DNA of 64,000 nucleotides, taken from the sequence record OR544955. One strand, written 5' to 3'. The notes below the pieces were generated by a model. It did not search any database, was not told the DNA's origin, and saw only the letters and a program-made list of their open reading frames with translations. The stretch is from Escherichia phage vB_EcoP_EP32B. The position numbers were made by a program, and so were the translations under genes. This document shows, one piece after another, positions 9,592 through 64,000 of this stretch (the stretch's first letter is position 1; each line of letters begins with the position of its first letter).

Positions 9592-9765
9592 ATGACGAAC
9601 ATCCCGACTTCTGAAAATTTCGATAAAATCCGTAAAGGCAAAGCAGAAAGAATGAGACGTTTTAAAGAGTCTTATGATAAAGCTAAAGCCGAAGGAACTA
9701 TTACATACAAGCCCATTCGATTTAAAAGTTCAAATGAGCCTCTGTACGGCGTACTATGTGGATAG
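9592..9765 (+). CDS. hypothetical protein (57 aa)
   Basis: ATG after GAGAGG; ends at hairpin terminator. Confidence 0.4.
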   Translation: MTNIPTSENFDKIRKGKAERMRRFKESYDKAKAEGTITYKPIRFKSSNEPLYGVLCG

Positions 9766-9789
9766 GAACTCTTCGGAGTTCCTTTTTTT
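9764..9789 (+). terminator. UUCG-tetraloop hairpin plus T7 run
   Basis: AGGAACTC TTCG GAGTTCCT then TTTTTTT. Confidence 0.75.
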
Positions 9790-16293: not shown

Positions 16294-16297
16294 AGCA

Positions 16298-16315
16298 ATG
16301 GGACTTCGGTCCCAT
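16298..16315 (+). other. UUCG-tetraloop hairpin between regA and 43, followed by TATAAT
   Basis: ATGGGAC TTCG GTCCCAT; no long T run. Confidence 0.5.
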
Positions 16316-16374
16316 TTGGAGTATAATAAGTTCATCAACAAACAAAAGACAATAACTCGTCTAAAGGAAATTAA

Positions 16375-28546: not shown

Positions 28547-28550
28547 TAAA

Positions 28551-28570
28551 AAGGAGACTTCGGTCTCCTT
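28551..28570 (+). other. UUCG-tetraloop hairpin after gene 41
   Basis: AAGGAGAC TTCG GTCTCCTT; weak U tract. Confidence 0.5.
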
Positions 28571-28634
28571 TCGGGGTTTACATCTTCCTCTAGGCATGAT
28601 ATGATGTACTTACACAAACCAAGAGGAAAACATT

Positions 28635-33782: not shown

Positions 33783-33808
33783 AGGAATCCTTCGGGATTC
33801 CTTTTTTT
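33783..33808 (+). terminator. UUCG-tetraloop hairpin plus T7 run
   Basis: AGGAATCC TTCG GGATTCC TTTTTTT. Confidence 0.75.
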
Positions 33809-39038: not shown

Positions 39039-39716
39039 ATGAGCACTGATGTTATTATAGATTTTGAAACATTCGGCAATACATCAAAAGCGGCTGTTAT
39101 TGACCTTGCGGTTATTGCATATAATTCCGACCCTGAAGTTGTTGAATCATTTGAAGAACTTGTTCAACGAGGTAAGCGAATTAAATTTAATTTAGCTTCT
39201 CAAAAAGGGAAGCGAGTTTTCGCTAAATCCACTATGAAATGGTGGAAAGAACAGTCAGCAGAAGCGCGTAAAAACCTGGCTCCGTCTGAAGACGATGTCA
39301 CTACGCTTGAAGGCATTAAAATCTTTTTAGACTATTGCCGAGCTAATAAAGTTGACCAATGGAAATCACAGATGTGGTGCCGTGGTATGAGCTTTGACTT
39401 CCCGATCTTGGTCGATTTGATTCGTGACCTCTATCGTGATGAAGGTGTTCTTGAACCAGATATTGATACTGATAAATTAGAACCGGTTAAATTCTGGGCT
39501 CAACGTGATATTCGTACGGCAATCGAAGCTTACTCGTTGACACGAGGATTAAGTATGTGTCCATTACCGATGGGTACGCTAAAAGGATTCGTTGCCCATG
39601 ATAGTATTCATGATTGTGCTAAAGATATTTTGATGTTAAAATATGCTCAGCGTTATGCGCTTGGCCTTGAAGATGTCCCTGAGAATCCTGACCCGTTAAG
39701 TGTAAAACAGCGATAA
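39039..39716 (+). CDS. dexA: exonuclease A DexA (DEDDh)
   Basis: 225 aa, IIDFETFG exo motif, HD near C-terminus. Confidence 0.85.
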   Translation: MSTDVIIDFETFGNTSKAAVIDLAVIAYNSDPEVVESFEELVQRGKRIKFNLASQKGKRVFAKSTMKWWKEQSAEARKNLAPSEDDVTTLEGIKIFLDYCRANKVDQWKSQMWCRGMSFDFPILVDLIRDLYRDEGVLEPDIDTDKLEPVKFWAQRDIRTAIEAYSLTRGLSMCPLPMGTLKGFVAHDSIHDCAKDILMLKYAQRYALGLEDVPENPDPLSVKQR

Positions 39717-43107: not shown

Positions 43108-43124
43108 GGGCTTCGGCCCTTTTT
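43106..43124 (+). terminator. UUCG-tetraloop hairpin plus T run
   Basis: AAGGGC TTCG GCCCTT TTT. Confidence 0.7.
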
Positions 43125-44988: not shown

Positions 44989-45030
44989 GCTCCTTCGGGA
45001 GCTTCATTTTAATTTTAATAAGGCTTAATT

Positions 45031-49596: not shown

Positions 49597-49618
49597 GGGG
49601 ACTTCGGTCCCCTTTTTT
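49597..49618 (+). terminator. UUCG-tetraloop hairpin plus T6 run
   Basis: GGGGAC TTCG GTCCCC TTTTTT. Confidence 0.8.
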
Positions 49619-51905: not shown

Positions 51906-52045
51906 TGATTAAGAAAATCTTAGCAGGAGCCTTCGGGCTCTTGTTGCTGCTTACGGTTCTGTACTATGGTGTGATGTTTGGACTAATCCAAGTAGTGCTT
52001 TTCATTTCAGATGTTATAATGGTTATTCGTTCATTAATATGGTGA
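51905..52045 (+). CDS. small membrane protein (46 aa)
   Basis: TAATG coupling. Confidence 0.35.
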   Translation: MIKKILAGAFGLLLLLTVLYYGVMFGLIQVVLFISDVIMVIRSLIW

Positions 52046-54535: not shown

Positions 54536-54623
54536 AATCATTTAAAGAACGTTTAGAAATGAAGTTCCTGAAATCTGTTGGCAAACTCTGGTTATTCCTG
54601 GAGTTCGTCATTACTCTAAAGAT

Positions 54624-54818
54624 ATGGCTGAAGTACTTGATATAGTTGGTCCTCAATTAGTCTCGCAACAAGTTTGTGGCGATGACCAAGGCTTTATCGA
54701 CCAATACTCTAATTACTGGACTCGTGAAGAAGCAATGATTATTGCAACATATGCTGGACAGGTACGTATTGAACGTGGCGGAAGTGAGAAAGAACTTTAT
54801 TCAGAGGACCTTTATTAA
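54624..54818 (+). CDS. hypothetical protein
   Basis: 64-aa ORF. Confidence 0.4.
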
Positions 54819-55099
54819 TGAATATTAAACAACTCCAGAAAGATGCTATTGAATCACGTATCCAAGATATCAAACGCCTGAATGCTATGATGGAAGAAAA
54901 TTATGGTATGTATGCTAATCAGCCTGGTTGGGATGCTTTAGACCATCCTTATTTGGTTAATTTATGTAAAGGTGATACGTTAGCAATTATTCGTGATGGG
55001 TTAAAACCTTTCTTGCGAGACATGTATATTAAAATGAACGAAGAAATTATTAGCTCGTTGCAATATCAATTAAGGAAATTAGATGATGAGAATAATTGA
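54818..55099 (+). CDS. hypothetical protein (Arn-like position)
   Basis: 93-aa ORF between motA and asiA. Confidence 0.4.
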   Translation: MNIKQLQKDAIESRIQDIKRLNAMMEENYGMYANQPGWDALDHPYLVNLCKGDTLAIIRDGLKPFLRDMYIKMNEEIISSLQYQLRKLDDENN

Positions 55100-55310
55100 T
55101 TCTAAAGCAGATTATTTTAATTCTGTTAATGATAAGAATAAAGCTTTAATTCGCCACTTTATTACTAAGATGGGTTATACTGACTCTAAAGATTTGAAAG
55201 AGCACATTATCGAATGTTCTGTGGCTAAAAAGTTTTCTTTCACAGACAAATGTTTAAACGAGGTTATAAATCATTATGAACAATCTTGTAGCAAAACACG
55301 ATTTCAATAA
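55083..55310 (+). CDS. hypothetical protein
   Basis: 75-aa ORF. Confidence 0.4.
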   Translation: MMRIIDSKADYFNSVNDKNKALIRHFITKMGYTDSKDLKEHIIECSVAKKFSFTDKCLNEVINHYEQSCSKTRFQ

Positions 55311-55384
55311 GGCTTCTGTTCATAAGGACAAGAAGAAATCAGAACTTCAATCTAAACGCAAACAAAAACATAAGGGTAAAGACT

Positions 55385-55684
55385 ATGCTTACTAAAATCA
55401 AAGAAAATCCTGCCACTGAACTTGTTATTCGATGTGAAGAACTTGCAGAGCTTTATCAGGTTAACAGAGAAGTGTGTCGTAGTGTTATCGTAGATATGGA
55501 AGATGAAGTCTGTTCTCGTATTCCTTTTAGTGTCGATTTCAATCACATGAAGCCTGGTGAAATCACTATCGTCTTTGGTTCTGACTATACTGAAGAACGG
55601 GCTCTTAATGTCCTAGAATATGAAATGTCATTCTTTGACATACAGGACTACATTGATAGTTATAAGGAACAATATGAGTCATAA
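55385..55684 (+). CDS. hypothetical acidic protein
   Basis: 99-aa ORF. Confidence 0.45.
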   Translation: MLTKIKENPATELVIRCEELAELYQVNREVCRSVIVDMEDEVCSRIPFSVDFNHMKPGEITIVFGSDYTEERALNVLEYEMSFFDIQDYIDSYKEQYES

Positions 55685-55835
55685 TCTTCAGAACGTAGTA
55701 GAGGCCGAACGTGAGCGTGAGGCTTTAGTCTATAATGAACTATTAGCTTTGTTCTTAGCCTTAAACTCGTACGAACAGGAAGACTACACTAATTACGTTA
55801 AAAGCGTAGAAAAAGCCGTTTACAATCAACACTGA
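55674..55835 (+). CDS. hypothetical protein
   Basis: internal ATG of ORF 55620..55835. Confidence 0.35.
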   Translation: MSHNLQNVVEAEREREALVYNELLALFLALNSYEQEDYTNYVKSVEKAVYNQH

Positions 55836-55881
55836 TAATGGTACTATATCCATATCAACTAAGTGGAATGAATAAAACGTT

Positions 55882-56154
55882 ATGAATAAAGACATTGAAA
55901 TCGTACGTGAAATTATTACTATTGCTTCTATTTTGATTAAATTCTCTAGGGAAGATATTGTTGAAGACCGAGCAAGTTTCATCGGATTCTTGAATGAGAT
56001 TGGAATTAAAAAAGATGGTCGGCAGCTAAATCAGAATTCGTTCAGAAAACTAATTACAAATTTAACTGCCGAAGAAAAGAAAACACTGATTAGTGAATTC
56101 AATGAAGGTTTTGAAAATATTTATCGTCATTTAGCGATGTATTCTAACAACTAA
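55882..56154 (+). CDS. asiA: anti-sigma-70 factor AsiA
   Basis: 90 aa; REIIT.ASILIKFSREDIVE.RA.FI.FLNEIG...GR.LNQNSFRK as recalled for T4 AsiA. Confidence 0.9.
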   Translation: MNKDIEIVREIITIASILIKFSREDIVEDRASFIGFLNEIGIKKDGRQLNQNSFRKLITNLTAEEKKTLISEFNEGFENIYRHLAMYSNN

Positions 56155-56814
56155 TTATTTAGCCCTTCCTAGTATTCGGACCGCTTGGTTGCATATAGCC
56201 GCTAAGCGATCTTCCTCAAGTATATTATTCCCCTTATACCAATACATCGTCACAGTTCCAGCATAGATGTTATCCAAATTAAAGTATGGACAACTATACA
56301 TATAAGAAAGTTCGGCAGTCTTAGATTTTGTAGGCAAAAATGCAAATTCTGATTTAGATGAGAAATGACGGCCGCTTAAATGAATTATATATTCATTAGC
56401 CGTTTTATCCACTGGGAATCCGCCAAGGGACTTTTCAGAAATTGTGCTAGGTAGTTTGCCTTCATAAGCTATAAGGTCGACAAAATAATTTAAGTTTTTA
56501 GGTCTGAAAGAATACACAGCACTAAAATCTGCACCAGATGAGATATGAACTATTTGCAGTTGTTCTAGAGCCGCAGATTCAAAACGTAAAGCTCGTTCTT
56601 TTTGGATTATTTCAGTATAAGTATCATACTTAGCTCTTACATAATAATCCAGCAAAATACTTCCTTTGTACCATATTAGTGCCATTAGGAACAAAAGAAT
56701 AATTACCGCCACTCGGGACATTAAAACCTTTCCGGTAGCGTTATCTTTGAAAATACGATCTAGCAACCCAAATAGAATATCACTAAGCGAAAATGATACT
56801 TTTGGTGTTGCCAT
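56155..56814 (-). CDS. t: holin T
   Basis: 219 aa; single N-terminal TM, FSLSDILFG.LDR.FKDNATGKVL; recalled T4 t match. Confidence 0.95.
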   Translation of the reverse strand: MATPKVSFSLSDILFGLLDRIFKDNATGKVLMSRVAVIILLFLMALIWYKGSILLDYYVRAKYDTYTEIIQKERALRFESAALEQLQIVHISSGADFSAVYSFRPKNLNYFVDLIAYEGKLPSTISEKSLGGFPVDKTANEYIIHLSGRHFSSKSEFAFLPTKSKTAELSYMYSCPYFNLDNIYAGTVTMYWYKGNNILEEDRLAAICNQAVRILGRAK

Positions 56815-56823
56815 AATACCTCC

Positions 56824-57375
56824 TTACTTAAAGATATTTATAATCGCTTTGATAATAGATTTGTTTTCAAGGTCAGGGAATTTAGGGAATTCGCCGCCAA
56901 GATGTTCATGTTTTTCTAAAAGGGCAAAGAATTTTTTGAGCTCTTTAAATTTTCGTTTTTCTTCTCTATTAGCAACCTCTGCGTCAATAAGAGAACTTAA
57001 AACACTGAATAATTTATAGAGTTCATGAATTTTCTTATCACGTTGAACTACACGTTTATATGCTTCATCTTCCTTCCACCCGTCGTCGGTCCAAAGGTCA
57101 AATTCACCAGGTTCTTCTGTAGTAACATTTTGAAGAGCACCTGGAGTGTCAATAACAATTTTTTGCTTATCATATGTCCATACTGTTTTTCCACGATGGT
57201 CTTCAACATATACCCATTCTTGTTCGCGTTCATCAAATACAACAGCATAGCCTTCTTTAGGGTCTAAAGGTTTTTTTGGTGTCGAATGAGCCGGAAATCC
57301 TACGCCTTTTAATGGTTTATAATTTTCTTCTTTGTAAAATTCTTTAGTGTCAAAATAATAGTGATAGAGTTTCAT
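56824..57375 (-). CDS. 38: tail fiber assembly/adhesin protein gp38 (T4 type)
   Basis: 183 aa; MKLYHYYFDTKEFYKEENYKP..FALLEKHEHLGGEFP. Confidence 0.9.
   Translation of the reverse strand: MKLYHYYFDTKEFYKEENYKPLKGVGFPAHSTPKKPLDPKEGYAVVFDEREQEWVYVEDHRGKTVWTYDKQKIVIDTPGALQNVTTEEPGEFDLWTDDGWKEDEAYKRVVQRDKKIHELYKLFSVLSSLIDAEVANREEKRKFKELKKFFALLEKHEHLGGEFPKFPDLENKSIIKAIINIFK
56835..56842 (-). promoter_or_regulatory. late promoter TATAAATA for t (inside 3-prime end of gene 38)
   Basis: + strand TATTTATA about 20 nt upstream of t start. Confidence 0.6.
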
Positions 57376-57408
57376 ATTATAAAAAAGGGACCGAAGTCCC
57401 TTCTCCTT
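57376..57408 (-). promoter_or_regulatory. gene 38 translation initiation region: SD separated from AUG by a UUCG hairpin
   Basis: mRNA UAAGGAGAA GGGACUUCGGUCCC UUUUUUAUAAU AUG. Confidence 0.65.
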
Positions 57409-58992
57409 ATGCTAAACGAACGATATAGTTAAAAGCAACGTTTTTAACTGTGTTTTCTGTATTTCCTGTGGCATTTACAGTTATTGTATGTCCATGGGAA
57501 CCAATTGCAACAGTATGAGAATGAGCACCAATACCTACCGAATGGGTATGAGCGCCAATACCCACAGTATGAGCATGGTTACCCGTGGTACTTGTGGTTC
57601 CTGACCAAGAGTGTGTATGGTTACCTTCTGAAGAAGTTTTGGCTATATTCGACCCTGCAGTAGCACCGTTCACGGTTCCAGTGAATTTAGAGCACTATGG
57701 TTATGAGACTTAATACCATCTGCTTCTGTACTTAATACAGCACGCCCAGATGGTTTACCTTTAATCGTTTGCCCACGCATATCAGGCAGAGAGCCGGAAG
57801 GATACACCGCAGCTAACTTAGGATACAAGCCAGCATCAAATGTTTGACCTTCCATTATGGCATAACCTTCAGGAGGTGTATCAGTAGGCCATGGAATCGG
57901 AGCACCAATTGGGTAACTCGACACAATATCCGTCTTAAGGTTATTTATTGTGGTATTCAAGTTAGCAAAATTACCAGAACCGCCGGTGATATTACCATCA
58001 GTACCAATAATTGTCCTAATTGCATACGGTAATTAGGAGAAATGCGACTATGACTAGTTATAACAACAAGTTTATTATCATTATCAACGGTCACCATATT
58101 ACCGCCAGCACCATCATCACCTAACGTAACAGAATGGCGCATTTGAACCATACCGTTAATAGTGGTTCATTTTACCACCAGCATTGTACCCGATATGGGT
58201 TTGTCCGTCTCCAGCATTGTTATTATCAGCTTGTGTTTGAACCCTTGGTCTTCTGAACGTCCAAATATACCTTTACGAGTACTACGGAAACTGTCAGGAG
58301 TAATAGAAGCAACAGAATTCCAATTACCTACTAAATCATAAACTCCTTGCTTAATATATTTTAAGCCAGTAGCAGCATCCCCCAAAGCAATATATCTTTC
58401 TCCCATTGGAGTAGGAGAGCCGTAGTTATTGGTATTTTCGTCAGCAGTAATTGTGCCAATAGCAAGTGAACGACGTAATACCATTGCTCCATCATTACGA
58501 AGACCCATTAATTTAGTAGTAAGTATATTTCCGGTCCACCAAGAAATTTCATCATTCTTACCAGTTTGAGCTGAAGCGATTTCATGGTAAATAGTTCCGC
58601 CTGATTTAGCTCGAACTTTACGAAGATAGTTTATACCATTTTCTTCACCTGTTCCAGGATAAACATATTGAACTAATGACTGCGAATCGTATTGTCCAAA
58701 TGCTTTTGTGTCCAAAACAATGGTTTTCGTATTAACTTGCGGAGCAGAAACTATACCATTAGCGGAGTTAATATTGCCGGACGCAGAAATATTACCTGCG
58801 TTGAGTTACATTACCGTTAATATCCCCGCCCTTAGCAAAGCCTAGGCTAATAATATTACCGAGGTCATCTTTAGTAAAAAGAGTTCGATCTTTTAAGTTT
58901 ATCGCTAATTCGCCTTCGGCTAATTGTGCTGCAGTAGGATTAACTCCTGCTACTTTGCTTCTTTTAAATTGTATCTGTTTTAATGTAGCCAT
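57407..58992 (-). pseudogene. 37: distal tail fiber gene 37 (T4 type), reading frame broken into at least five segments
   Basis: N-term [13 protein letters not shown]; internal [23 protein letters not shown]; His-box C-term [22 protein letters not shown]; frame changes near 58790, 58235, 58155, 57670. Confidence 0.8.
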
Positions 58993-59000
58993 AAGTCCTC

Positions 59001-59666
59001 TTAATAATAGCCGAAATCTTGAACAGAATCTTTAATTACAATCTGGTCGAAACGAGGAACATGATTAGCCTCAGACGCCGGATTCTGTGAGAAAAAGTTT
59101 GGTGCTGTTAAAGTACCAGTCATGGTATCGCCTTTACGCAATACACGGGAATTTGCGTTATCCGTAACAATATTTATTCGTCCATCAACATAATCTTTTC
59201 TTGTGAGATCATTTGCTGCTATAGGAGCAGCCGCATCACTTCTTACTTGACCAGCTGCCGACACAACGCCTTTTGTATTAATATCACCATTACGTGTATT
59301 AATTACTACAGTTCTACCCGCTGTTCCTTGTGATGATTTAAAACCAATACCATACCACGAAACAATATCAATATTTGCTGTAACAAAAGTAGCTGCATCT
59401 CCATTACCAGGATAAATACCAGATTGATTTGTATTGTTTATAGCATATGGTATTTGAACACCGCCGTTAAATGTTACCTTTGAAGCATAAGTACCACCAT
59501 TAGCTTTAGAAACGAAATCGTTATCAGCAGCTTGTGGTTTATTATATTCTGAATAGAGTTTAAACGTTTTATACAGGACGTCATCACCTGCTGGCATTAA
59601 AGGGAAATTACCTTGATGCCATATAACAGCACCGCCAGTTGTACTACCAGCTTTTAAATCGGCCAT
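59001..59666 (-). CDS. 36: tail fiber protein gp36
   Basis: 221 aa; [38 protein letters not shown]. Confidence 0.92.
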
Positions 59667-59690
59667 AGTTGTCTCCTTATATGTATACCA

Positions 59691-59698
59691 TATTTATA
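59691..59698 (-). promoter_or_regulatory. late promoter TATAAATA upstream of gene 36
   Basis: + strand TATTTATA, 24 nt upstream of gp36 ATG. Confidence 0.7.
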
Positions 59699-59705
59699 CA
59701 AAAAT

Positions 59706-59723
59706 GGGAGCCCGAAGGCTCCC
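59706..59723 (-). terminator. UUCG-tetraloop hairpin after gene 35
   Basis: GGGAGCC TTCG GGCTCCC on - strand. Confidence 0.6.
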
Positions 59724-59728
59724 TAAAT

Positions 59729-60856
59729 TTATTCTGATGCTTCTTTAAATTCTTGTCCAAATACCTTACCAGTATCAGTTGAAGATTGAGTAGGTAATGT
59801 CATTATGTCTGGAGCACTTAAAGATTCTGAAACATAATTTACACGAATACCATTTATACCAAACTCCGCAGGTTTTGAAACGCTTCCATTACATGATACT
59901 TCAGTGAATATAACGTTTCTTAATCCACCTTGCCCGACTGGAGCCGTACGATAACAATAAATCGTGAACCCGTCAGCACCAGCAGGAATTTCTATGTAGT
60001 CTTCATATATCTTCCATTCACCTGCACCCCCGTCAAAGTTTATATCCTTAAATGAAATAGGTGAAGTAGAAGGAGATTTAAAGAAACGAATAGAAAGTCG
60101 TGTCGTCCCTTGTGCTAACAAATCAGCATCGGCCATTAGTTGGAATTTCATATAAAGGAAATCTCCAGGCTTCAATTTATACCCAGCGAGAGGTGTAATA
60201 ATGGATGTTGTAGGCATCCTTTTAATTTCATTATTAGTACCTCCAATGGCAGATAAAAATGTGTCTGTCGATTCGTACGTACGTCTAGGGAAGCCGGTAG
60301 CACCAATATCATCGATCGTGTCGTACACAACATCAAGTGGTGTACTATAGTCGGTTGAAGTTTTCTTATTACTATACTTAATATGTTCTAGTGCTATAGC
60401 ATTCTTACCAGAAATATAAAATGCAGAATAAGAAATGTCCACTATATTTAAAACTTGTTGAGCTAATGGAATAGCAGAACTCCCAGCTTTAGTAAACCAT
60501 GCAAGAACTTCTGGTGGAAAGTTTGTTTTAGCGTTAGTAACAAGAGCAAATATAAAATTTGAAGCATATGTGTCCATGAAAGTAACAAATGCACTTGACG
60601 TGGCGTCGTTTTCAGTAGAGAAATTATATGTCTTAGATTCAACTACTGTACCTGTTGTAGGATTTATTACACGAACGTTTAATCCAACGGAAAAAACCTG
60701 AGACCCAAGTGGATTATCCTGGAACTTAATATAAGCAGGAGATGTTGATAGCGGGCAAGAGCCCGCTATGCTTAATTTAAATCGTACTGAATTGCTTTCC
60801 GATAAAAATGGCGTTTGGACGTATCCTTGTCCAAACTTAGCCATAAATTTTTCCAT
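59729..60856 (-). CDS. 35: tail fiber hinge protein gp35
   Basis: 375 aa; MEKFMAKFGQGYVQTPFLSESNSVR. Confidence 0.92.
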   Translation of the reverse strand: MEKFMAKFGQGYVQTPFLSESNSVRFKLSIAGSCPLSTSPAYIKFQDNPLGSQVFSVGLNVRVINPTTGTVVESKTYNFSTENDATSSAFVTFMDTYASNFIFALVTNAKTNFPPEVLAWFTKAGSSAIPLAQQVLNIVDISYSAFYISGKNAIALEHIKYSNKKTSTDYSTPLDVVYDTIDDIGATGFPRRTYESTDTFLSAIGGTNNEIKRMPTTSIITPLAGYKLKPGDFLYMKFQLMADADLLAQGTTRLSIRFFKSPSTSPISFKDINFDGGAGEWKIYEDYIEIPAGADGFTIYCYRTAPVGQGGLRNVIFTEVSCNGSVSKPAEFGINGIRVNYVSESLSAPDIMTLPTQSSTDTGKVFGQEFKEASE

Positions 60857-60864
60857 AATACCTC

Positions 60865-63800
60865 TTATTCAATCCACTCGAATTTAACAGATTTATTCAC
60901 AGGGTCTGGAATAATGCGGACATTACCAATCCTTAAGAAATCCCTTATTGTCAAGTTTCCGATTGTTGCATTATCAGAAGGTAAAGCACCAATATCAGAA
61001 GGTTGAGGAGGGTTTCCACCATCAAATACCTGAACAAAACTTGACCAAGAATTTTTAGTTTTCTGCCATGTACGAGTCCAACGGGTTGTACGTGCTTCTG
61101 GAGTTGTTGGATAAGTAATCCAATCTTGGTAAAGTGAATCAAGTGTGTTACCAAACTGAGTCAAAGTACCAGGAGATTTAACTTCTTCACCACGTTCTAA
61201 GTATGGAAGTCCAGACACTTCATTAGTTTTTTCAACCATTTTAAAATAACCCGGGAATTGGTTATAAGTGGCTGAATCGTTAATATCAATTGACCAGAAT
61301 CCTACATTATCAGATGTTGGCGCACGGGTATATAAATCGGATGTTTTAGTACCCTGAGAACGAATTCTCGAGTTAACAGTCAAACCGCCAGAATTTATAG
61401 TAGCACCATTGGCAATGATTAAGCCTTCACCAATTGTAATCTGACCGGATTGGTTATTAATTGATAATGGACGTAATCCATTAAATCCGCCAGTCTGATC
61501 ACCGGATGCGGTGATCATAAAATATGTGCTGCCGCCATCATTGCGAATAAAGAATCCATAATCACCACTAATTGCTCTAAATGCATTTGCAGACTTGCTA
61601 ATGAATTCGCCATTGGCTGTAACTGAACGACCAAATGTTGCAACGCCATTCGCATTTAACGTGCCTGAAGCGTTAACATTTATTGGCATCACAGTACCAT
61701 TAATGCTAAACGTTATATTCCCAGCTTTATTACGTTGAGAATAAAAGTGATTAGATGTTTCATCGCCAACTTCAAATACAGTAGAACGTGTTGTATCTGA
61801 ACCACCACCAAATTCATTTCCCCAAACTCTGATAGTTATCGTTTGAGCAGGATTTGTTCCAGTTTGAGGTCCTTTTTCAAAAATCAGACGAGTTGCTGTT
61901 CCAGTATTAGAAATAGTTAATGTACTATTTGCCGAAACTGAACCACCAAACGTAGCAGTACTAGATGATACAAGAGGGGCACTCAGATTCGTTTGCTGGG
62001 TTAAGGTTAGTGAACCATTAACCGTCTGTGCAATGTCCCTACGAATGAACTGAGATGAATCTAGGCCATCTAATAAATTACTATCTATGGCTTTTGCTTT
62101 TAATGGTAAATAGTTAGCAAGTACACGGTTTAATTCATATGGTGATATAGCATAGCTATTTTTTTCATATGATTCTAAAGGTTGTGTTGAACCAACTGTA
62201 TCATTACCAACAAATGTAATAGAACCGGATGAAGTTTTAACGAATCCGCGAATTGCCGTAGTAGCAGCCCATGTTGGTTCGTTCTGGACAATCCATTTTA
62301 AATTCTTAGGCGATACAGCAGTATTAGCAGAAGTTCCTGTTACAGTTTCAGCCCGAGTAGCAACCTTAATTACACCTTCAGACGTTTCAGTGGACTTAGT
62401 CCCTAAAAGCTTTTTAGGAGTAATAAGAACATCATCTAAAGTTCCTGCATTAGATTCTGCCTGAGTCGCTACGCGAAGTGTACCACGTTGTGTTTCATTT
62501 GCTTTAGAAATATCAAGAGTATAATGGTTCCACAAGGTTCCTTCTTCAATAAGTCCGGAATCAGAATTAACACTGGTACGGTCAGAAGAATCAAAATGAG
62601 TTTTAATTTTCAGTGGAGTCGAGATACGAGTATCATCAGTTCCAGTATCAAATTCAACTTGCGTAGCAATTTCGGCTATGCCGGATAATCCTTCCGTAGC
62701 TTTCCTATCATTTAACGTCTTAGGCGTTACTGCACGTGTATAATCAGTCCCAGCATTAGTTTCTACTTGCGTAGCAATTTCAATTAAACCAATACGTCCA
62801 TCAGTAGAAGTTTTCTTATGTAGTGTTTCAGGAGTTACTACAGCGTGAGAATAACCTGCTTGAGATTGTCCAGCAATTACTTCACTATCAACAGCTAAAA
62901 TTACTGCACCTTGTTGAGCATAAGTTGCTTTATATTGGTCAAGGGCTTTAGGAGAAATAGTTAAATTATTTACGGTTTTATTATAAACGTTAGTGCCTGC
63001 GGCCCCACGAGTTTCAGCAGGAGTAGCAGAAGTAGTTGATACATATTTAACTATACCAGATAGTGTTTCAGAACCCTGACGTGCCTGCAATTTCTTAGGT
63101 GTAATAATCGTTGTGTCATCAAGACCAGCATCGGTTTCAGCCTGAGTAGCAATTTCAGCAAGACCACGACGAGTTTCAGTTGCTGTACGCTCATTTAGTT
63201 TTTTAGGCGTAACAATAGTATCGTCAACGAATGTTGCTGTGGAATTCTGATTAACTTGTGCTGTTGTAGCAATTTTAGCGATACCACGTCGAGCTTCGGT
63301 TGCTGTACGATTTGCCAACGTTTCAGGAGTAATAGCCACTTCTTTAGCTGGAGTATTCTCTAAATCAACATTTGCTTGCGCTTGAGTAGCAAGAGCAATA
63401 ACACCTAAACGAGCTCGTGTAGCATCAGTTCCAGCATCAACACGTTCTACCGTAGGGACATTCTGTTGCACAACCCAATAATGAGTGTCGGAATCGGTGT
63501 CTTCAATATATGCTAATTCTAATACAGGAACATATGAAGTAGTGCCATTGAATTCTAGTTCAGTAACAGAGACCCATTGAGCATCAGGTGGATATTCAGA
63601 ACGTTTAGGGAACTGAAGCAATGCAACAGAAGAAGCAATTGTATCACCTTCGGCAGCTTTAATTTTTACTGTTTGGCCTTTACGCATGTAGTTCATTGAA
63701 ATTTTAACAGTGTCACCACTCAAAATTCCTGTAGGCAGCGTAAGATTAATAGTTCCGGTTGTAGCGTTATTTGTGCCAAAAATAAGAACTTCTTCATTTG

Positions 63801-64000
63801 GACGAATATTTGAATCCGCACGGATAATACGAAGACGTGATTTCTGATCGCCTTCCCATATACGCCATAAACTATTTGAAGCATCAAAAACAAAAAACGC
63901 GTCAGAGTCATTTCTGCCTTCGGCAATATGAGTCCCGACTTCACCAATAGACGTTGTATCATCAAATGTTTTAACAATTGTATGATACAGTGGGTTTAAT
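60865..64000 (-). CDS. 34: proximal long tail fiber protein gp34, 5-prime partial (runs off window end)
   Basis: frame open from 60865 to 64000; ..RIIRADSNIRPNEEVLIFGTNNATTGTINLTLPTGILSGDTVKISMNYMRKGQ.. to ..VKFEWIE. Confidence 0.95.
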   Translation of the reverse strand, partial: LNPLYHTIVKTFDDTTSIGEVGTHIAEGRNDSDAFFVFDASNSLWRIWEGDQKSRLRIIRADSNIRPNEEVLIFGTNNATTGTINLTLPTGILSGDTVKISMNYMRKGQTVKIKAAEGDTIASSVALLQFPKRSEYPPDAQWVSVTELEFNGTTSYVPVLELAYIEDTDSDTHYWVVQQNVPTVERVDAGTDATRARLGVIALATQAQANVDLENTPAKEVAITPETLANRTATEARRGIAKIATTAQVNQNSTATFVDDTIVTPKKLNERTATETRRGLAEIATQAETDAGLDDTTIITPKKLQARQGSETLSGIVKYVSTTSATPAETRGAAGTNVYNKTVNNLTISPKALDQYKATYAQQGAVILAVDSEVIAGQSQAGYSHAVVTPETLHKKTSTDGRIGLIEIATQVETNAGTDYTRAVTPKTLNDRKATEGLSGIAEIATQVEFDTGTDDTRISTPLKIKTHFDSSDRTSVNSDSGLIEEGTLWNHYTLDISKANETQRGTLRVATQAESNAGTLDDVLITPKKLLGTKSTETSEGVIKVATRAETVTGTSANTAVSPKNLKWIVQNEPTWAATTAIRGFVKTSSGSITFVGNDTVGSTQPLESYEKNSYAISPYELNRVLANYLPLKAKAIDSNLLDGLDSSQFIRRDIAQTVNGSLTLTQQTNLSAPLVSSSTATFGGSVSANSTLTISNTGTATRLIFEKGPQTGTNPAQTITIRVWGNEFGGGSDTTRSTVFEVGDETSNHFYSQRNKAGNITFSINGTVMPINVNASGTLNANGVATFGRSVTANGEFISKSANAFRAISGDYGFFIRNDGGSTYFMITASGDQTGGFNGLRPLSINNQSGQITIGEGLIIANGATINSGGLTVNSRIRSQGTKTSDLYTRAPTSDNVGFWSIDINDSATYNQFPGYFKMVEKTNEVSGLPYLERGEEVKSPGTLTQFGNTLDSLYQDWITYPTTPEARTTRWTRTWQKTKNSWSSFVQVFDGGNPPQPSDIGALPSDNATIGNLTIRDFLRIGNVRIIPDPVNKSVKFEWIE

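Follow-up and report, generated by a model that had tools for sequence, protein, structure and literature searches.

Two ribosome binding sites of phage T4, those of genes 38 and 25, have been called 'noncontiguous or split' (PMC7297116). At gene 38, a 22-nt gap between the Shine-Dalgarno sequence (SD) and the start codon folds to about 5 nt (PMC3014915, which adds that destabilising mutations reduce initiation); in the account of Gold (1988) given in PMC7297116, the enhancing role of this structure is only 'suggested'. The same principle applies to the split translation initiation region (TIR) of T4 gene 25, at the 26-25 junction, where a hairpin reduces an SD-AUG gap of 27 nt to 11 nt (PMC3014915). 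As cited in that source, the gene 25 site has been experimentally tested and is conserved in close T-even phages (Nivinskas et al. 1999; Malys and Nivinskas 2009, via PMC3014915), and it is for gene 25, not gene 38, that reporter and DMS-probing work is detailed (PMC3014915).

The DNA analysed here, referred to throughout as the window, is a stretch of 64,000 nt from Escherichia phage vB_EcoP_EP32B (OR544955). It belongs to a Mosigvirus-like T-even phage, and the region shows 98.5% nucleotide identity to Escherichia coli O157 typing phages 3, 6 and 13, and 95-97% to many Mosigvirus records. The gene order is 37-38-t, and the 37/38 junction aligns base for base with that of T4. The gp38 protein shares 67% identity with its T4 counterpart over 98% of its length. 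With the gp38 proteins recorded for Mosigvirus and related Tevenvirinae the identity is 95-99.5%, and the N-terminus, MKLYHYYFDTKEF, is conserved starting at residue 1. The junction of gene 25 lies outside the window, and the gene 25 TIR, which belongs to a different gene, is unrelated in sequence to the element described below, the features of which are collected in Table 1.

Table 1. Positions of the 37/38 junction features, late promoters and other C(UUCG)G hairpins in the window.
Feature	Position	Strand	Basis or remark
Gene 37 3' end, long tail fibre distal subunit, His-box needle region	57407..57673	-	ORF list and translation
Gene 37 stop TAA	57409-57407	-	Sequence
Shine-Dalgarno AAGGAG of gene 38, overlapping gene 37 stop	57403..57408	-	Sequence; invariant in 17/17 distinct junctions
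Core hairpin GGGAC-UUCG-GUCCC, 5 bp, C(UUCG)G tetraloop	57387..57400	-	Folds and comparison
Stem 5' arm	57400-57396	-	
Loop UUCG	57395-57392	-	Closed by C57396/G57391 pair
Stem 3' arm	57391-57387	-	
U6 run directly 3' of core stem	57381..57386	-	Sequence; terminator-like look
AUAAU spacer ahead of start codon	57376..57380	-	Sequence
gp38 AUG	57375-57373	-	ORF
Maximal predicted stem-loop, 11 bp	57381..57406	-	MFE and centroid structures
Gene 38, T4-type tail fibre assembly chaperone, 183 aa	56824..57375	-	ORF and similarity
Consensus T4 late promoter TATAAATA upstream of gene 36	59691..59698	-	Pattern search; nearest exact match upstream of gene 38
Consensus late promoter TATAAATA inside gene 38 3' end	56835..56842	-	Presumed for holin gene t (56155..56814)
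C(UUCG)G hairpins	9765-9782, 16300-16313, 28553-28568, 33784-33801	+	
C(UUCG)G hairpins	43108-43119, 44989-45002, 49597-49612, 51924-51943	+	

On the minus strand the junction reads GCA-UAA-GGAG-AA-GGGAC-UUCG-GUCCC-UUUUUU-AUAAU-AUG. The initial annotation had placed the sole SD, AAGGAG, about 30 nt upstream of the gp38 start and over the gene 37 stop codon, with a GGGAC-UUCG-GUCCC hairpin and a U-run between SD and AUG. The position of the SD was confirmed, the gap being 27 nt from the last G of AAGGAG to the AUG (33 nt from SD start to AUG start), and the hairpin with its U-run is exact at 57400-57381. The 16 nt before the AUG read GUCCCUUUUUUAUAAU; purine-rich SD-like motifs are absent from the interval 4-13 nt ahead of the gp38 AUG, and no in-frame start codon occurs upstream of it before a stop. 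A plus-strand reading of the hairpin (GGGAC-CGAA-GUCCC) was discarded, there being only spurious ORFs on that strand at this position, with the nearest plus-strand gene (asiA) ending 1.2 kb off.

The surroundings of the junction show some irregularities. From 54584 to 64000 the window is collinear without gaps with E. coli O157 typing phage 3 (NC_041863.1) at ~96-100% identity, except in gene 37 (57407-58992, minus strand), which is fragmentary. Relative to NC_041863.1, five clean deletions of 247, 334, 722, 43 and 350 nt, with junctions at 57690/57691, 58009/58010, 58157/58158, 58242/58243 and 58800/58801, reduce this gene from 3282 to 1586 nt (1696 nt missing); none is a multiple of 3, and the ORF pieces lie in different frames. 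These deletions are probably an assembly or consensus artefact over a hypervariable fibre gene, or mark a defective genome. The deletions spare the last 284 nt of gene 37 as well as the junction, and so do not affect the hairpin finding; the 3' end of the gene matches gp37 of O157 typing phage 3 collinearly at about 98%. Further away, downstream of motA, 26 nt of the window (54558-54583, plus strand) stand in place of 201 nt of O157 typing phage 3, with collinear flanks.

We conclude that the element is, with good probability, the orthologue of the split (noncontiguous) TIR of T4 gene 38, judged from its sequence and position; as the counterpart of a repeatedly cited T4 element, it is already known. 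It lies at the 37/38 junction, has a distant SD only, and contains an intervening hairpin which restores the spacing and is conserved through compensatory change. The T4 junction runs AAGGAG-AGGGGC-UUCG-GCCC-UUCU-AAAU-AUG, and shares with the window the locus, the AAGGAG over the UAA, a GGG...CCC stem, a tetraloop closed by a C-G pair and a looped-out spacer. The two differ in the raw gap (27 nt in the window, 22 in T4) and the folded gap (9 versus 5-6 nt), in one stem pair, which is A-U in the window and G-C in T4, and in an extra A before the window stem. In addition, the window has UUUUUU-AUAAU where T4 has UUCU-AAAU, a change that makes the element more terminator-like and permits pairing of the U-run with GGAG. 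The likeness to T4 gene 38 that had been suggested for this site is thus borne out by the orthologous junction, together with the published descriptions of the T4 element (PMC3014915, PMC7297116).

By homology with T4, initiation at gene 38 would proceed as follows. The gene would be carried on the late message 36-37-38, on which its sole SD, AAGGAG, at 27 nt from the AUG, would be too far away for normal initiation. The stem-loop, in its 7-bp form with the SD free, would loop out 18 of the 27 nt, and a 30S subunit bound to AAGGAG would meet the AUG ~9 nt away. Work on T4 suggests that the hairpin enhances gp38 translation.

The RNA structure prediction that had been proposed as a check recovered the hairpin in both a 76-nt and a 241-nt context. 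In the shorter one the core hairpin is the dominant fold, seen in the centroid as well, with a minimum free energy (MFE) of -16.2 kcal/mol and a z-score of -2.34 (4 of 200 shuffles as good); in the longer one it is present in both the MFE and the centroid structure, the remaining region folding no better than shuffles (z = -0.30). The ViennaRNA energies include no extra bonus for UUCG over UUCU or UUAU, so the computed values understate the experimentally known stability of the tetraloop. An outer helix between CAUA (the end of gene 37 and its stop) and UAUG (the start codon) appears in short-context MFE folds, and was rejected as a conserved feature because each natural change breaks a pair and none is compensated.

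Two forms of the stem are relevant to SD accessibility. If AAGGAG is left free, A57402 and A57401 pair with U57386 and U57385 to give a 7-bp stem, AAGGGAC-UUCG-GUCCCUU, of -10.7 kcal/mol; 18 of the 27 nt are then looped out, with a computed SD-AUG gap of 9 nt, near the upper limit of useful spacings. In the 11-bp stem (GGAGAAGGGAC/GUCCCUUUUUU), GGAG (57406-57403) is weakly paired with U57384-57381 through G·U and A-U pairs, and the SD is masked. The SD of the window variant is accordingly predicted to be mostly paired, P(unpaired) being 0.01-0.28, and freeing AAGGAG costs about 4 kcal/mol, whereas in the T4 counterpart the GG of the SD is predicted to be free. In this model, pairing between the U-run and GGAG would oppose initiation unless the 30S subunit or a terminating ribosome opens the weak pairs.

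A scan of both strands of the 64-kb window for a distant SD with an intervening hairpin and no near SD, covering ATG starts in the first 40% of open frames of at least 80 codons, returned only the gp38 start and one weak candidate at 39234. The latter (39194-39234, plus strand; AAAAGGGA-AGCGAGTTTTCGCT-AAATCCACT-ATG) has a 5-bp stem and only AAGG as SD, and its ATG is possibly not a true start.

The junction was compared with those of 22 further sources, namely GenBank phage records, one IMG/VR contig and three metagenome contigs, which with the window gave 17 distinct sequences. The classified records are from Tequatrovirus, Mosigvirus, Gaprivervirus and Dhakavirus; scans of public collections added few junctions (2 from IMG/VR, 3 from metagenomes), and the diversity comes mostly from GenBank phage records. 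No record of the phage collection matches the window at 100% over the 65-nt junction. The overlap of AAGGAG with the stop codon is present in all 17 distinct junctions, and the core stem is paired in 85 of 85 cells (17 junctions x 5 pairs). The observed paired fraction or covariation score was reached by 0 of 500 shuffles, and pairing falls to 66-75% when the partners are displaced by one column.

The variation within the stem is concentrated at the pair adjoining the closing pair, which is G-C in eight junctions, A-U in seven (including the window), C-G in one (ESCO47) and G·U in one (LH01). The GGG/CCC part and the closing C-G pair are constant, barring a change of the outermost G-C to G·U in T4; of the five core pairs, therefore, one changes on both sides, one shows this single substitution and three never vary. 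The covariation evidence comes from one pair, with three or four independent pair types. Besides UUCG, the loop may be UUCU (the IMG/VR contig, 308Ecol101PP and ST0), UUAU (O157 typing phage 3), UUUG (SHBML-50-1) or UUAG (C6), and the absence of UUCG from the closest relatives, which have UUCU or UUAU, indicates that the special tetraloop is not required. Following the stem, T4-type junctions have UUCU and others U4, U5 or U6; the spacer varies too. Across the variants the raw SD-AUG gap is 22-27 nt, with the window at the top, and the folded gap, taken with AAGGAG single-stranded, is 6-9 nt in every one of 16 variants, the window having 9. Selection on the stem and on the folded spacing, rather than on the tetraloop or the U-run, would be expected to give this pattern. 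The proposal that folding brings the SD to a normal distance from the AUG is supported by this contraction from 27 to 9 nt and by a stem kept through compensatory change.

Several natural variants of the junction merit separate description. Among near-identical Mosigvirus junctions the U-run is U4 in ST0 and LH01, U5 in most, and U6 in the window, 308Ecol101PP and O157 typing phage 3, and these length differences give folded SD-AUG spacings of 7, 8 or 9 nt. The UUAU loop of O157 typing phages 3 and 6, and presumably of phage 13, gives rise to an additional AUG (NC_041863.1, locus L015, 1791-1818; the corresponding window position is 57393-57391). This AUG is in frame with the conserved gp38 start, 18 nt upstream of it and only 9 nt from GGAG, and RefSeq annotates a 189-aa gp38 from this loop AUG. 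As read from the sequence, it could be a natural variant that bypasses the split site, though it lies half inside the stem. The 37/38 junction of Salmonella phage Lv5cm (MZ150757.1, ~488-603) is duplicated in tandem: the SD-hairpin-ATG and ~60 nt of the gene 38 5' end are followed by a second hairpin-ATG, the annotated gene 38 start, and no AAGGAG precedes the hairpin of this second copy.

UUCG hairpins are also abundant elsewhere in the window, which contains 14 UUCG-loop hairpins of at least 5 bp against 4.4 +/- 2.1 in dinucleotide shuffles. Tuerk et al. reportedly treated C(UUCG)G hairpins of T4 mRNAs in 1988. Nine further hairpins of the C(UUCG)G type with at least 5 bp were found, mostly intergenic, and five have U-runs and terminator-like scores. 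That at 49597-49612 (GGGGAC-UUCG-GUCCCC followed by U6) is nearly identical in sequence to the 37/38 hairpin. Between genes 35 and 36, a 7-bp GC-rich hairpin (GGGAGCC-UUCG-GGCUCCC; 59723-59706, minus strand) is followed by AUUUUUG, and 7 nt after it by the TATAAATA promoter (59698-59691), a terminator-then-promoter arrangement spanning 59723-59691. At 16297-16326 (plus strand), the hairpin 16300-16313 has the same core, GGGACUUCGGUCCC, as the 37/38 hairpin and precedes an SD-like AUUUGGAGUAUAA, while at 28550-28571 (plus strand) the UUCG stem itself holds an SD-like AAAGGAGAC, which is sequestered. A search for Rfam families found none for the 37/38 hairpin, an E-value scan of 56700-58000 giving chance hits only (E at least 1.9).

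The initial annotation had also assigned the element a role as terminator for gene 37 transcripts. Taken further, the hairpin might be mainly a partial Rho-independent terminator or attenuator ending gene 37, giving a high gp37:gp38 mRNA ratio and a 3' hairpin that shields gene 37 mRNA from 3' exonucleases, with any effect on gene 38 translation secondary; we consider this rather less likely than a split site, with which it could coexist. The GC-rich 5-bp stem, the UUCG loop and the U6 that follows immediately are those of an intrinsic terminator, and the same hairpin in vB_EcoM_WFbE185 (MK373778.1) is annotated as a putative transcriptional terminator (-11.80, ARNold). A d'Aubenton-Carafa-type score, used for relative ranking only, is +19, within the +11 to +39 of the terminator-like C(UUCG)G hairpins of the window. 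With these, and with T4 mRNA C(UUCG)G hairpins and Rho-independent terminators, the element shares the C-G closed UUCG, the GC-rich stem and, here, the U-run. Unlike them, it stands within an operon before a promoterless essential gene, rather than at the end of a transcription unit whose downstream genes have their own promoter, and its loop is unconserved in close relatives. The stem is also short (5 G/C-closed bp), and the U-run is lineage-specific, junctions with UUCU-AAAU scoring negative (-25 in T4, about -9 in a typical type A junction), whereas the SD, stem and folded spacing are conserved in all junctions. A terminator scan of the window did not list the site, probably through greedy stem extension into the U-run, and this was not counted as contrary evidence.

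The distribution of late promoters bears on the same question. From its sequence match, the promoter upstream of gene 36 presumably gives the 36-37-38 transcript. No exact TATAAATA follows in the window from 59691 down to gene 38, and in 7 sampled relatives the 600-1800 nt that precede the gene 38 start also contain none. One-mismatch copies on the minus strand at 59178 (gene 36), 58062 and 57949 (gene 37) occur at chance frequency and were rejected as late promoters of gene 38's own, as was the TATAAT-like spacer run, which matches no late promoter and would start transcription inside coding sequence. The late promoter within gene 38, conserved as TATAAATA in T4, PhiZZ30, VR25, ESCO10, JK45, WFbE185 and O157 typing phage 3, presumably serves the holin gene t, so termination at the hairpin would affect only gene 38. 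For gene 38 itself, however, efficient termination would abolish an essential chaperone; with no promoter between that of gene 36 and gene 38, the gene is reached by read-through, and termination can be at most partial. No mapped transcript 3' ends for this site were found in the searchable literature. A terminator role is thus plausible from the stem, the U6, the ARNold annotation and the positive score, but an unconserved U-run (UUCU in T4-type junctions) and a gene 38 with no consensus late promoter would make it at most a leaky, lineage-specific extra. As such, the U-run element may reduce, though only in part, the transcription that continues into gene 38, and may leave gene 37 mRNA with a 3' hairpin that protects it.

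A different reading, which appears doubtful, couples gp38 synthesis to gene 37 translation: the ribosome ending at the UAA would melt the hairpin, stay on the SD and re-initiate at the AUG after refolding, with the hairpin and the U-run/GGAG pairing excluding free 30S subunits. The overlap of stop and SD in every distinct junction fits this, as does the masking of GGAG by the extended stem of the window variant. The 5' arm of the hairpin lies 5-11 nt downstream of the UAA, and the footprint of a terminating ribosome would cover and melt a hairpin so placed. Against this, the 31 nt between stop and AUG is long for simple re-initiation, the GG of the T4 SD is predicted to be free, and the sequence does not separate coupling from de novo initiation. 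The T4 accounts cited here invoke de novo initiation at a split site in its folded form (PMC3014915, PMC7297116). Equally doubtful is a combination in which the T4 gene 38 translational hairpin has been reshaped, in the Mosigvirus-type lineage, as a dual-purpose switch, the expanded U4-U6 run both making a leaky intrinsic 37/38 attenuator and masking GGAG by G·U pairing. Were this true, gp38 output would depend both on transcription passing the hairpin and on the unmasking of the SD by ribosomes that complete gene 37; natural variants that bear on it are those in U-run length, the loop changes, and the loop AUG of the O157 typing phages, a normally spaced upstream start. Finally, the hairpin could have arisen by chance or be neutral, either as a recombination leftover at the 37/38 cassette boundary or as a T4-type C(UUCG)G hairpin with no role. 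The z-score of the 76-nt fold is by itself modest, C(UUCG)G hairpins are common in the window (10 with at least 5 bp), and a stem that is mostly invariant is uninformative either way. Yet one position takes the forms G-C, G·U, A-U and C-G with none of the 85 cells unpaired while loop, U-run and spacer drift, the folded spacing stays at 6-9 nt despite a 5-nt change in the raw gap, and the essential gene 38 has no alternative SD. The covariation and the constant folded spacing make a chance hairpin very unlikely.

The gene 38 site of T4 has long been cited as a case in which RNA structure aids initiation, a distant Shine-Dalgarno sequence being brought beside the start codon. To this the present comparison brings modest added support, with a stem kept via G-C, G·U, A-U and C-G pairs, and a folded spacing of 6-9 nt, against a drifting loop, U-run and raw gap. 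It also carries a practical message for annotation, where automated pipelines label the hairpin a terminator or, in one lineage, shift the gp38 start to the loop AUG, and where annotators should take the split site into account.
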